From Eledone cirrhosa (Eukaryota), in contig OZ024759.1 in assembly GCA_964016885.1 (NCBI GenBank), positions 35,216,001 through 35,280,000 of the forward strand: a DNA stretch of 64,000 nucleotides, written 5' to 3'. Of the stretch, positions 7,727 to 27,062 are shown in pieces (within the stretch, counting starts at the first letter, position 1; each line of letters starts with the position of its first letter). Made by a program: the position numbers and the translations under genes. The notes under the pieces are model-generated. The model saw only the letters and a program-made list of their open reading frames with translations. It did no database searches and had not been told where the DNA came from.

Positions 7727-8110
7727 TAGGTTTCTAAGAGCCGACCAGATAATGGAACAGGGGACTTTGTTAAAAGCTTTCTCCAGGTCAACAAATACCA
7801 AGTAGAGGGGTTTACCTTTCAACTAGGTACTTCTCCAGCAGTTGGCTCAAACCGAAGATGGCATCTGTGCTACTTTTACCTGCCACAAATCCAAACTGCA
7901 TCACATCTAATTTAATTTGGTTCCTAATCAGCTGTGCTATAACTCTGTCACCTTCATGACCTGGTCAACCAACTTCTACAGCTGGTCCCTCTCTTGGGTC
8001 GATATGTGACAAACTTTCTTCTTCTCATTCAGTAATCTTTCATAATGGCACTTCCATGCTACCTTTTTTTCAGCATCATTGATATCCTAATGTTTCAGGA
8101 ACTCCCATTG
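7727..8110 (-). mobile_element. Degenerate RTE LINE RT fragment; the part from ~7905 is included in the palindrome unit
   Basis: Reverse strand reads GFVAGKSSTDAIF..QLLEKYL..KGKPLYLVFVDLEKAFNKVP and KKVAWKCHYERLL. Confidence 0.8.
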
Positions 8111-9128
8111 CTCCTCTCTATTCGCTCTTCGTTGCTGTCGAAGGCGTTGGTCAACATACTTATATAATTGTTACTATTTGATGGGTCTTTTAACTTCCAT
8201 ACTCGTTTCCTCTAGGTTGGCTTCTATTGTGGGGTTCTTCTAGCTCTGACTATATGGTCACTAACTACTGTATATATATATATATATATATATATACTTA
8301 TTGGTTTCCACCTGTCTATCTGGCTTGACCCATTGAAAATATGTTTAAACATTGCTCCAGTCCTGGTAGAATCAGTTCCCTTTAATTCTTCCTGTCCAGA
8401 ATGTTAGCTCTATGGAACTCCCTGACAATGTCATAACCTCAAATGTAGACTTTTAAAACATTTCCAGCTGTGACCATCCTGTGTTTATATGCGTATCTAA
8501 GACTACATTGTCATAAGTGTCCTTATTTGGTTTAGAATGTGTGAGAACCAAGTATTTGGTGGCAAATTGAAAGAGTCGATAGAATGGTTTGCAGTATTTG
8601 TTTCGGCTCAATGAGTCCAACTTTGCATTTCATCCATTTGAGTTCGATAAAAAAAAAAAGTACCAGTCTAGTACTGAGGACGATTCTTCCTCTATATCTC
8701 TTCCTCACTTTCTATCCTATCCTTCTCTGGAAGGAATCTGTTGTATACTTCTTTCTGTGTAGTTAGCAGCCAAAAGTGTTCTTTTAAAAGAAAAACCTTT
8801 ATTTCATGTTGCTCCAGTACACTAAATAGAGATTTAATCCTATCCATGGATAGGGAGAGTCTGGTACTCTGAGAGTGCATTTTTTATTTCCAGAAACAAG
8901 TATATCTACTTACATATTAATTGTATATATGTACAAAATACTAGTAGTTTCAAAATTAATATATATATAGAAACTGAATGAGAGTAAGGTAACACAGAAT
9001 ATATTTTAAGACGTGTTATCTCGCTTTCTTTCCGTTTCTATAAATTTTTTTTAAATAAATAAAATTTTACCTATAAGTATGACTAATTTACTCCGCAAAC
9101 TTATGGCCTCGCGTGGCGACACGCGTAG

Positions 9129-9376
9129 CGATTCGGACTTGTTCGCCTACTTAAGTATGGCCTGACATTCTGTGTGTCGGAAGATCGAATCTTTGCGAGG
9201 GCACTCAACCTCGGCAACCAGGACTATTTCCAGGTTGATTATATGCTGGACAACGCAAGCAATCGTTTTTTTATGAAAATTATTTCCCCTTTATGGAACT
9301 CTTCTGTTGCATTATTTACGATTGACTTCCGGTTCTTTGAAAAAGATCATCTTGGATATTACGTTCATTTAAAGAG
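9129..9376 (+). CDS. Putative exon of an orphan gene in the palindrome unit (copies ~19427-19674 +, ~25610-25857 -, frameshifted ~15164-15409 -)
   Basis: Complex non-repetitive open frame RFGLVRLLKYGLTFCVSEDRIFARALNLGNQDYFQVDYMLDN...HLGYYVHLKR ending at a good donor AG/GTATGT; 5' end undefined and no homologue recognised. Confidence 0.35.
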
Positions 9377-10010
9377 GTATGTAATGTTTTCTTTGTATAC
9401 AATATAACTCTCTACACACACCATATCAATATGTACATTTTATTCGTAGAAACTAAACCTCTTTTTACATATATTTTCTTTATTGACATAATTCGATTTA
9501 CACCTTTCCTTTTTAGAGTCATATACACATTCTTCACTAGACACATACCTTCTCTATATACAGCTACATTTTTATTATCTTCTTTATTTCTCTTATTATC
9601 AATAAGAACATAGGGAGCTGGAGTTGTGAAGTGTGTGGTTGTTCTACTGCTCTCTAAATCTGGGTACATCAATACTAGGGGTTGCATAGGAAAACGGCAA
9701 TCATTTGCAAAGATTAAGCAATCACTATATATGTATACACATTCATCTATAGAAGTTGGCATGTATGTATATGTGTGTGTTTCGATATACATAAGTATAT
9801 ATGAATATACTGGCAGAGTCACACTTTACTATCCCAAGTATCAAGTACTCTTGAATAATGATATATATATATATATACACAAAACAAAGTATAACAAAGG
9901 AAATCCTGTAGTTACCCCCTATTGTATACACATACATATATATATATATATGGGATAACAAGTTATCGTTATAGGTGATCCAGTTAGAGGTTGTGACTAA
10001 TAGTAGTGGA

Positions 10011-10279
10011 AGATTGAAGAATAAGATGGCCGGCTGTACAAAAAGGGTTTTATTTCTAGTATTAACAATTGTTTCATTGACCAGGTGAGTCAGAAGGTCG
10101 CTAATCACTCGAAGTTGCCTCAGTCGACCTTAAATACAGTGTTTACCTCTGATCAGAGGTAAACACTGTCTTTAAGGTCGAGTGATTAGCGGCCTTTAGT
10201 CTCACCTGATCAATGAAACTTTTGATAATACTAGAAATAAAACCTTTTTGTACAGCTGACCATGTTATTCTTCAATCTT
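10011..10279. repeat. Imperfect ~270-bp palindrome inside each unit copy, centred on CTCTGATCAGAG
   Basis: AAGATTGAAGAATAA...TTATTCTTCAATCTT mirrored; also at ~14258-14527, ~20312-20581, ~24701-24970. Confidence 0.85.
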
Positions 10280-23909: not shown

Positions 23910-23946
<37 letters not shown>

Positions 23947-24039
23947 GTATATATATATATGTGTGTGTGTCTGTGAGTGTATATATATGTCTGTGTGTAT
24001 ATATATAGCGATGAGTTGTCTCGTATATATATATATGTC

Positions 24040-24108
<69 letters not shown>

Positions 24109-27062
24109 ATATATAGCAATGAGTTTTCTCGTATATATATATATATATATATATGTCTGTGTGTGTGTGTATATATATGTGTGTGTGTCTCTGTGTGTAT
24201 ATAGATATATGCCTGTGAGTGTGTGTATATATGCCTGTGTGTGTATATATATATATAGCGATGAGTTGTCTCGTATATATATATATATATGTCTGTGTGT
24301 GTATATATTTATATGCCTATGAGTGAGTGTGTGTATATATATGCCTCTGTGTGTGTGTGTATATATATATATATAGCGATGAGTTGTCTCGTATATATAT
24401 ATATGAAAGCAAAGAACACAAAATATAACTACTCCATTACCAAATGGATCTCAGACAATAATAGAACAAGTGTGGATCGTCAGACAGAGATGTTATCTTA
24501 TTTGCCAACTTAATATAGAAATACGCTAAATTCTATTTGATATGACCGAGAAATGTGTGAGGTGACATTACATTGGAAATACAACGTGGAGGTGGGGCAG
24601 CAGCTAAACAAAACTATATATATATATATATACACGATATATTAACAAATGGAACTACATATATATATATATATATATTTATATATGTGTGTGTGTGTGT
24701 AAGATTGAAGAATAACATGGTCAGCTGTACAAAAAGGTTTTATTTCTAGTATTATCAAAAGTTTCATTGATCAGGTGAGTCTAAAGGCCGCTAATCACTC
24801 GACCTTAAAGACAGTGTTTACCTCTGATCAGAGGTAAACACTGTATTTAAGGTCGACTGAGGCAACTTCGAGTGATTAGCGACCTTCTGACTCACCTGGT
24901 CAATGAAACAATTGTTAATACTAGAAATAAAACCCTTTTTGTACAGCCGACCATCTTATTCTTCAATCTTCCACTACTATTAGTCACAACCTCTAACTGG
25001 ATCACCTATAACGATAACTTGTTATCCCATATATATATATATATGTATGTGTATACAATAGGGGGTAACTACAGGATTTCCTTTGTTATACTTTGTTTTG
25101 TGTGTGTGTATATATATATATATATCATTATTCAAGAGTACTTGATACTTGGGATAGTAAAGTGTGACTCTGCCAGTATATTCATATATACTTATGTATA
25201 TCGAAACACACACATATACATACATGCCCACTTCTATATATGAATGTGTATACATATATAGTGATTGCTTAATCTTTGCAAATGATTGCCGTTTTCCTAT
25301 GCAACCCCTAGTATTGATGTACCCAGATTTAGAGAGCAGTAGAACAACCACACACTTCACAACTCCAGCTCCCTATGTTCTTATTGATAATAAGAGAAAT
25401 AAAGAAGATAATAAAAATGTAGCTGTATATAGAGAAGGTATGTGTCTAGTGAAGAATGTGTATATGTCTCTAAAATGGAAAGGTGTAGATCGAATTATGT
25501 CAATAAAGAAAATATATGTAAAAAGAGGTTTAGTTTCTACGAATAAAATGTACATATTGATATGGTGTGTGTAGAGAGTTATATTGTATACAAAGAAAAC
25601 ATTACATACCTCTTTAAATGAACGTAATATCCAAGATGATCTTTTTCAAAGAACCGGAAGTCAATCGAAAATAATGCAACAGAAGAGTTCCATAAAGGGG
25701 AAATAATTTTAATAAAAAAACGATTGCTTGCGTTGTCCAGCATATAATCAACCTGGAAATAGTCCTGGTTGCCGAGGTTGAGTGCCCTCGCAAAGATTCG
25801 ATCTTCCGACACACAGAATGTCAGGCCATACTTAAGTAGGCGAACAAGTCCGAACCGCTACGTGTGTTGCCACGCGAGGCCATAAGTTTGCGGAGTAAAT
25901 TAGTCATACTTATAGGTAAAATTTTATTTATATCGAAACGGAAAGAAAGCGAGATAACACGTCTTAAAATATATTCTGTGTTACCTTACTCTCATTCAGT
26001 TTCTATATATATATTAATTTTGAAACTACTAGTATTTTGTACAAATATACAATTAATATGTAAGTAGATATACTTGTTTCTGGAAATAAAAAATGCACTC
26101 TCAGAGTACCAGACTCTCCCTATCCATGGATAGGATTAAATCTCTATTTAGTGTACTGGAGCAACATGAAATAAAGGTTTTTCTTTTAAAAGAACACTTT
26201 TGGCTGCTAACTACACAGAAAGAAGTATACAACAGATTCCTTCCAGAGAAGGATAGGATAGAAAGTGAGGAAGAGATATAGAGGAAGAATCGTCCTCAGT
26301 ACTAGACTGGTACTTTTTTTTTTTATCGAACTCAAATGGATGAAATGCAAAGTTGGACTCATTGAGCCGAAACAAATACTGCAAACCATTCTATCGACTC
26401 TTTCAATTTGCCACCAAATACTTGGTTCTCACACATTCTAAACCAAATAAGGACACTTATGACAATGTAGTCTTAGATACGCATATAAACACAGGATGGT
26501 CACAGCTGGAAATGTTTTAAAAGTCTACATTTGAGGTTATGACATTGTCAGGGAGTTCCATAGAGCTAACATTCTGGACAGGATGGATTAAAGGGAACTG
26601 ATTCTACCAGGACTGGAGCAATGTTTAAACATATTTTCAATGGGTCAAGCCAGATAGACAGGTGGAAACCAATAAGTATATATATATATATATATACAGT
26701 AGTTAGTGACCATATAGTCAGAGCTAGAAGAACCCCACAATAGAAGCCAACCTAGAGGAAACGAGTATGGAAGTTAAAAGACCCATCAAATAGTAACAAT
26801 TATATAAGTATGTTGACCAACGCCTTCGACAGCAACGAAGAGCGAATAGAGAGGAGCAATGGGAGTTCCTGAAACATTAGGATATCAATGATGCTGAAAA
26901 AAAGGTAGCATGGAAGTGCCATTATGAAAGATTACTGAATGAGAAGAAGAAAGTTTGTCACATATCGACCCAAGAGAGGGACCAGCTGTAGAAGTTGGTT
27001 GACCAGGTCATGAAGGTGACAGAGTTATAGCACAGCTGATTAGGAACCAAATTAAATTAGAT
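18225..27062. repeat. Giant palindrome 2: arm C 18225-22502 (+), 37-bp hairpin spacer 22503-22539, arm D 22540-27062 (-)
   Basis: Direct reverse-complement matching; same unit as palindrome 1; ORF pairs 19472+/25579-, 21845+/22985-. Confidence 0.95.
22329..22714. other. GC-rich multi-hairpin core of palindrome 2, axis at 22521; central spacer inverted relative to core 1
   Basis: 22503-22539 is the exact reverse complement of 12179-12215. Confidence 0.9.

Follow-up and report, generated by a model that had tools for sequence, protein, structure and literature searches.

A conserved hairpin core at the centre of 17 palindromes in Eledone cirrhosa, 16 of them on one chromosome

How does a structure of four kilobase-long arms in alternating orientation, meeting in pairs across a single nucleotide, come to exist and persist in a genome? 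The question is raised by a 64,000-nt stretch of Eledone cirrhosa DNA (the window; positions 35,216,001 to 35,280,000 of contig OZ024759.1 in the 3.0-Gb assembly GCA_964016885.1), which holds a four-copy concatemer, the tetramer, with arms A(+)B(-)C(+)D(-), an order proposed in an initial annotation of the window and confirmed by self-BLAST and arm alignment. Palindromes of kilobase size and with a spacer of 0-1 nt should disappear from a genome quickly. Seventeen such palindromes, each centred on a hairpin array that we call the core, persist in this germline with that one core constrained and with arms that have diverged by up to 16% across the family, and all but one lie on the window's own contig (C20, 1.2% of the genome). 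We suggest that they probably spread by breakage and template switching and, more tentatively, that the core is kept as a CTCF-type boundary.

The extent of the family was established by searching the whole assembly for the core. An exact core 22-mer gave 32 matches in 3.0 Gb, 31 on C20 and one on C19; allowing three mismatches gave 34 core matches, corresponding to 17 cores with two each. A further five matches lay in a triplet array of C8 that is unrelated, and at up to three mismatches the genome contained no decayed core. Sixteen of the cores are on C20, dispersed over 26 Mb, and the window holds the only adjacent pair among the 17. With 10 kb on each side fetched for all 15 cores outside the window, the core proved to occupy the palindrome centre in every case (17/17), with mirrored arms of at least 0.6 kb in all and at least 1.2 kb in 13, so that the recurrence at centres of other palindromes with different flanks, which the initial annotation had proposed looking for, is borne out. 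Pairs of loci share blocks with ragged ends, 1-20 kb long overall and 10-12 kb or more in the compared pairs, and the pairs differ in which flanking blocks they share; the C19 copy has 10 kb of flank in common with the copy at C20:12.79 Mb (96%). No flanking direct repeat longer than 4 bp was found at 10 palindrome ends (longest 0-4 bp), nor any target-site duplication of the palindrome in the window, and pieces of long and short interspersed elements (LINEs and SINEs) have been captured in the arms and flanks of the copies. The placement of copies, the flips, the gains and losses of 75-bp hairpin units, and the microhomology or LINE-homology junctions devoid of target duplications are direct observations. 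A variable-length 81-bp satellite of up to ~14 kb lies inside the duplicated flanks of several cores (fetched loci L047, L058 and L116-L123; C20 21.5 and 22.5 Mb), and just left of the C19 core (L049 6322-9099; C19:14.057 Mb) is a 2.8-kb palindrome (95%) with mirrored frames, which we take to resemble a GIY-YIG endonuclease and to be probably a Penelope-like element. The core had no match in viral or metagenome contigs. No description of such palindromes in octopods was found in the literature searched, most subscription papers being outside its reach, and a search for the core motif returned only listings unrelated by title.

The paired arms evolve in concert, by arm-to-arm homogenisation. 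Across 33 inner arms (the left arm of the C19 copy, which has no last exon-like segment E2, was dropped), the median distance was 1.5% within a locus vs 8.9% between loci. The nearest arm was the partner arm in 11 of 16 scored loci, was tied in the window's two and was some other arm in three. Exchange is also visible in the palindromes at 32.72 and 12.79 Mb, whose arms are chimeric.

The core itself is ~285 bp long, with 60% GC and with CpGs that are retained (observed/expected ratio 1.51 vs 0.45 for the window). It consists of a lead and, after it, hairpins P1 (37 bp) and P2 (38 bp) in alternation; each core holds two to four P1 units, and eight different orientation patterns occur. Perfect hairpins are rare (2 of 59 P1, 0 of 42 P2), mismatches being otherwise kept. 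In the window, each of the two centres (12197 and 22521) is a 37-bp hairpin whose halves are separated by a 1-nt spacer and mispair at offsets 9, 11, 12 and 18, and the second is the reverse complement of the first, i.e. flip/flop. The core lead has about five-fold fewer changes than the adjoining arm (5 parsimony changes over 51 sites vs 27.2 expected from that arm; P ~2e-7, 33 arms). Its likeness to a degenerate GGT/GAC triplet array of C8 (91% over 33 nt) suggests an origin by microsatellite fold-back. The 4.5-kb degenerate GGT/GAC/GGC triplet array at L184 (3400-8000; C8:48.96 Mb), which is open in several frames, resembles the lead. A protein-coding core was considered and rejected: its 140-aa Gly/Asp/Pro frame lacks an ATG, changes in the hairpin bubbles are often non-synonymous, and an 85-aa part of the frame had no relative among 1,486 candidates, all of them longer proteins.

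Within P1, each hairpin resembles a CTCF site. The published CTCF consensus (PMC5291250) is the 14-mer CCACNAGGTGGCAG, and P1 departs from it by one mismatch in 57 of 59 units and by two in the other 2, on one strand. Each core has two to four such CTCF-like motifs. A genome search with a 14-mer gave 67 exact matches, 57 of them inside cores; the exact P1 sites, 57 in all, are likewise confined to the cores (50 among the matches listed, seven inferred from the count and that 14-mer search), and 520 kb of other fetched DNA contained no such CTCF-like site. By chance, a match arose in 20 of 200,000 Markov sequences and in 351 of 500,000 random palindromes; when three triplet arrays were folded back, the motif came up in 2-6 per 10,000. 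The overall chance is 1e-4 to 7e-4 per trial. Applying a degenerate CTCF consensus to the cores gave the same picture. CTCF motifs have been reported at coleoid domain borders and loop anchors (PMC10658181, PMC13652810). Elsewhere in the genome, a 54-bp tandem repeat at L186 4781-5414 (C27:20.589 Mb) carries a CTCF-like motif in each of nine units and is a possible insulator satellite. Its motif varies in a way that, we presume, resembles CTCF-site variation.

The arms on either side of the cores look like convergent exon-intron units resembling non-coding genes, judging by their sequence features (Table 1). The promoter-like region contains motifs that we take to be TATA-like and ETS-like, a conserved donor follows 9376, the acceptor before 11496 is kept in 47 copies (15 loci and the window), and the tandem repeats next to the core form a probable termination zone. 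Hairpin H1, upstream of the promoter-like region, is present in arms B, C and D and in relatives, with indel variation. An exact acceptor 18-mer had 79 matches (38 on C20, 17 on C15, 14 on C13 and 10 elsewhere), and the core with its long mirror was absent from 14 fetched loci on other contigs and from one more C20 locus; the unit family generally clusters by chromosome, and only the C20 branch gained the core. The C13 relative of the unit is spliced: a contig of run X4, taken as RNA solely from its splice junction, joins an upstream middle exon to E2 exactly at the acceptor in a variant that matches the C13 copies, and GT comes next in all 30 genomic copies of the middle exon that were inspected (36 found). 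Runs X5 and X6, of restriction-site-associated DNA (RAD), yielded 50 and 40 reads, most of them partial, with nothing that covers the core. Coreless branches of the same spliced non-coding unit cluster by chromosome on C13, C15 and C21 (L084-L097).

Two further roles for the arms were rejected. Against protein coding, exon 1 has frameshifting indels among copies and the middle exon is open in few copies, in differing frames; no intact open reading frame was found in the arms, a tblastn-type search hit family copies only, and no recurring non-LINE frame of note was found near the copies. Against a microRNA, H1 varies by indels, and all 30 Rfam matches fell below the gathering score; H1 may still contain an octopus small RNA described earlier (PMC9699675).

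Our reading of these observations is as follows. The core would have arisen when a degenerate GGT/GAC triplet microsatellite folded back within one copy of a wider non-coding unit. Being spacerless, it is expected to fold into hairpins or cruciforms at which the DNA breaks or replication stalls; template switching during repair would then carry the core, together with ragged flanks of 1-20 kb, to new places on that chromosome, and no dedicated enzyme would be needed. We consider spread of this kind probable, and the hairpin-driven local amplification offered by the initial annotation fits well; the centres show flip/flop and 2-4 nested hairpin units. Selection would then keep the core, and its likeliest role, which we put forward tentatively, would be that of an unmethylated CTCF-type boundary separating two convergent transcription units. 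For the whole, spread and boundary together, we see about as much reason for belief as for doubt.

Several points weigh against this reading. The CTCF-like motif was noticed after the fact, and the outward direction of the outer motifs, seen in 16 of 17 cores, lends no independent support because symmetry forces it from one ancestral event. The low rate of change in the core could stem from inter-locus conversion, or from a lower mutation rate in GC-rich unmethylated DNA. Hairpin-transfer replication also gives flip/flop centres, retained mismatches and variable unit numbers. The arms in the window lack the middle exon, and the spliced junction is the C13 variant rather than that of the window copies. 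Lastly, run X4 covers the arm and nothing of 12015-12400, which includes the core, though contigs show presence, not absence.

The tetramer is very probably real and a one-off, ordinary local duplication of one family member. The ~4.3-kb unit does occur four times, as first described, except that arm B is short of the outer ~745 bp and is interrupted by an RTE LINE that had been overlooked, whose 7-bp target duplication occupies 15633-15639 and 17984-17990; an atlas search confirmed the LINE and nothing else. The arms are 98.5-99.3% identical (22-45 differences in ~2,980 columns, the microsatellite block left out), and beyond its hairpin the C/D palindrome is perfect out to 984 bp. As the initial annotation stated, A/B and C/D meet at the 37-bp hairpin and B/C meet asymmetrically. 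Its account of a palindrome of palindromes made by two fold-back rounds does not fit: two clean fold-backs would leave the B/C join symmetric and every shared difference as A=D/B=C, whereas the arms pair in all three ways. Of the shared differences, 11 sites group A=D/B=C, 7 group A=B/C=D and 91 group A=C/B=D, the last lying almost wholly in 10570-11213. We infer that a replication-based duplication was followed by flips and conversions among the arms. Arm D is the older side, because it and the right flank continue into sequence shared with the C20:24.85-Mb copy. At the outer end of A, an RTE fragment (7719-7975) matches another at 28070-28331 (91.6%), and the left junction was probably formed by homology via the LINE.

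Table 1. Coordinates of features of the tetramer and its surroundings, as positions in the window
Feature	Position	Strand	Details
Arm A	7905..12196	+	self-BLAST, arm alignment; outer end within RTE LINE fragment
Hairpin H1	8967..9041	+	imperfect 30-bp stem, z -6.5; upstream of promoter-like region
Promoter-like region and first exon	9070..9376	+	TATA-like box 9070; CpG-rich (observed/expected 1.31); ETS-like motif 9325
Miniature inverted-repeat transposable element (MITE)-like fold-back insertion	9995..10284		290 bp; in four arms and several other C20 copies (one sub-branch)
TA/CA microsatellite block	10570..11070		A=C and B=D here
Last exon-like segment E2	11496..11570	+	conserved acceptor before 11496; first AATAAA 11564
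Tandem repeats, 58-bp and 31-bp	11564..11950	+	eight AATAAA hexamers
Small stem-loop	12005..12054		H1-related, adjoins core
Core 1	12055..12339		near-invariant lead and hairpins P1-P2-P1-P2-P1, 75-bp period; centre 12197
CTCF-like motifs, core 1	12114, 12189, 12267	-, -, +	consensus-like
Arm B	12198..18227	-	mirrors A from centre to A coordinate 8669; LINE-interrupted
5'-truncated RTE LINE	15640..17983	+	arm B only; frame 15853-17631, 592 aa, RVT_1 and PHD
B/C junction	18225..18227		3-bp microhomology, A coordinate 8669 joined to 7924
Arm C	18225..22520	+	self-BLAST, arm alignment
Core 2	22379..22663		flipped centre 22521
CTCF-like motifs, core 2	22438, 22516, 22591	-, +, +	consensus-like
Arm D	22522..27062	-	self-BLAST, arm alignment
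Flank	27063..32640		common to left arm of C20:24.85-Mb copy, 85-94%, to ~10 kb from core

Among the competing explanations, the one that survives best keeps the same origin and spread and gives the core no function: inter-locus conversion, hairpin self-repair and GC-biased repair would keep it uniform, and the CTCF-like motif would be a by-product of folding back a run of GGN/CCN triplets. The likeness of the lead to the C8 array, the exchange between loci recorded in the chimeric palindromes and the uncovered core in run X4 all agree with this. Self-repair, however, predicts locus-specific variants of the kind seen in the adjoining arm, whereas the lead is nearly alike in all 33 arms; the fold-backs of three triplet arrays produce the motif in just a few per 10,000 trials; and the hairpin mismatches are kept, not erased. 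We regard a functionless core as rather unlikely.

A more specific proposal, close to the integrated rolling-hairpin tetramer of the initial annotation, is that the palindromes are integrated head-to-head replication products of a hairpin-ended, non-autonomous element, moved in trans by an NS1/Rep-type protein such as those of the genome's own parvovirus-like endogenous elements. Parvovirus terminal hairpins are GC-rich, occur as flip and flop, and contain mismatched bubbles and internal palindromes, and rolling-hairpin concatemers are head-to-head. The core shares the flip/flop GC-rich hairpin, the bubbles, the internal palindromes and the layout, and its nested hairpin units, retained mismatches and repeated lead beside the hairpin would suit such an element, as would its conservation, expected of a cis element required for copying. 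It differs in having neither an NS1 nor a capsid gene in cis and no unit-length ends, and in arms that carry spliceosomal-type sites and host repeats, LINE and SINE pieces included, with no fixed far end. The asymmetric B/C junction, the A=C/B=D pattern of the inner arms, the ragged ends and the lack of a target duplication likewise tell against an integrated tetramer, confinement to one chromosome is hard to reconcile with a free phase, and the viral and metagenome contigs yielded no core.

The enzyme, too, had been expected to act in trans. As first noted, the structure contains no Rep or NS1 frame, its sole long complex frame being the RTE reverse transcriptase. Proteins of this type are available in principle, the genome having 29 Parvo_NS1 (PF01057) matches, several with long open frames and some in perfect palindromes, but none of the 29 is on C20, and ten NS1 loci had no likeness to core or arm probes beyond AT-rich noise and have terminal hairpins of other sequence. 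On balance, a hairpin-ended element is distinctly unlikely. A GGGAGG-type word common to the NS1 loci and the core was set aside, being frequent in SINE-like repeats too. The NS1 matches (at least 29) are on C2, C3, C6, C10, C12, C14, C18, C19, C25, C27, C998 and others; several frames adjoin phospholipase-A2-bearing capsid-type frames, as in densovirus-like endogenous elements, and stand in tandem on C12 (9.07-9.08 Mb). Some loci sit in palindromes or inverted repeats of 100% identity (L135 3579-5002, L136 458-3586, and L137 3164-5229 with 6460-8525); these could be integrated replication forms of young age, or else fold-backs of the assembly. A bolder combination, in which the core would be a self-propagating chromosome-specific cis element, a flip/flop array of hairpins that is both an origin for enzyme-driven copying (possibly by a captured parvoviral NS1-type protein in trans) and a switchable CTCF insulator seeding 16 boundaries on the one chromosome, seems to us just as doubtful as the hairpin-ended element.

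The palindromes might instead be hairpin-RNA loci, in which read-through from either arm makes long double-stranded RNA for endogenous small interfering RNAs, PIWI-interacting RNAs or ADAR, the core being constrained as RNA. The promoter-like ends, which converge, would favour this, as would the conservation of the splice sites, the near-perfect match of the arms, the spliced family member and the LINE, SINE and MITE pieces in the arms. Yet eight AATAAA hexamers precede the core on each arm, the coverage of run X4 stops short of the core (with the reservation on contigs made above), every Rfam match is below the gathering score, and at up to three mismatches the core has no target save the simple triplet array. 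We judge this explanation improbable.

Less probable still is a locally hopping DNA transposon of the Foldback or Mutator-like kind, its inverted repeats being very long. The long inverted arms with tandem repeats recall such elements, and in the relatives on C15 and C21 that have a single orientation, related promoter-hairpin blocks point inward from either end, but neither the 10 palindrome ends nor the window shows a target duplication, the end blocks have outward flanks that are unlike each other, the palindrome ends are ragged rather than sharp and paired, and the fetched flanks contain no recurring transposase frame (no genome-wide transposase search was made). With these blocks, the single units look like decayed older palindromes.

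Turning to known systems, sex-chromosome palindromes are kept uniform by arm-to-arm gene conversion and hold multi-copy transcription units on one chromosome. The family resembles them in paired arms that evolve in concert and in multi-copy units on one chromosome, and differs in arms of kilobases rather than tens to hundreds of kilobases, a spacer of 0-1 nt and one core common to all. Palindrome formation primed by short inverted repeats, or inverted duplication by template switching, yields mostly one-off or somatic events; the fold-back centre and the distal junctions with microhomology or repeat homology are similar here, but one conserved seed is fixed at 17 germline sites. The third comparison is with the GOLGA core on human chromosome 15, a palindromic primate core duplicon (PMC6436712); both have a core in tens of copies on one chromosome, varied flanking blocks and a palindromic arrangement. 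The GOLGA core carries a transcribed family, and here a C13 relative is spliced. The octopod core, unlike the GOLGA one, is itself a ~285-bp, nearly spacerless palindrome within 1-9-kb mirrored arms and encodes no protein. The family is closest to palindromic core duplicons (PMC6436712) and to arm-converting sex-chromosome palindromes, as generally understood, from which its tiny flip/flop core and its non-coding arms set it apart. Like divergent CTCF clusters at domain boundaries (PMC5291250, PMC10658181, PMC13652810), the cores have consensus-like motifs in a CpG-rich cluster, and these point outward, as symmetry forces them to; unlike those clusters, their putative CTCF motifs are the axes of flipping hairpins in a repeated palindrome.

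The family offers a natural replicate series for palindrome tolerance, arm conversion, hairpin flipping and the confinement of a repeat to a single chromosome. If the cores bind CTCF, it would also point to a route by which a folded-back microsatellite makes and spreads divergent insulator arrays, with motif direction switchable by flipping. A link with the Z chromosome and dosage compensation was considered and rejected. Amnionless, a Z-linked marker in Octopus (10.1101/2024.12.09.627507; see also PMC10925132), maps to C28, not C20, on the basis of this one marker (exon 84-85% identical to the Octopus bimaculoides and O. sinensis proteins), and the first three of five parts of that preprint, which treats Zmast/Zfest, describe nothing like the family.

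There remains the possibility, which concerns the tetramer and not the family, that two haplotypes or a chimeric read were joined at 18226. The 1-1.5% divergence of the arms is of the order seen between alleles, but such an artefact is most unlikely because every arm carries private differences (A 11, B 16, C 11 and D 3 sites) and arm B alone has the LINE with its target duplication; the B/C join, moreover, is a new microhomology junction and not an overlap, and the nearest N gap, at 46668, is 19.6 kb off. The spanning of 12197 that the initial annotation wished to see in reads is provided in part: one contig of run X1 crosses the A/B centre (12149-12245, zero differences, depth 16), but X1 possibly comes from the very sample that was assembled, and C20:32.72 Mb has this centre sequence too. 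Outside the tetramer, the window holds a separate 623-bp palindrome (98%) at 2001-2623, adjoining a 28-bp tandem array at 2631-4943.

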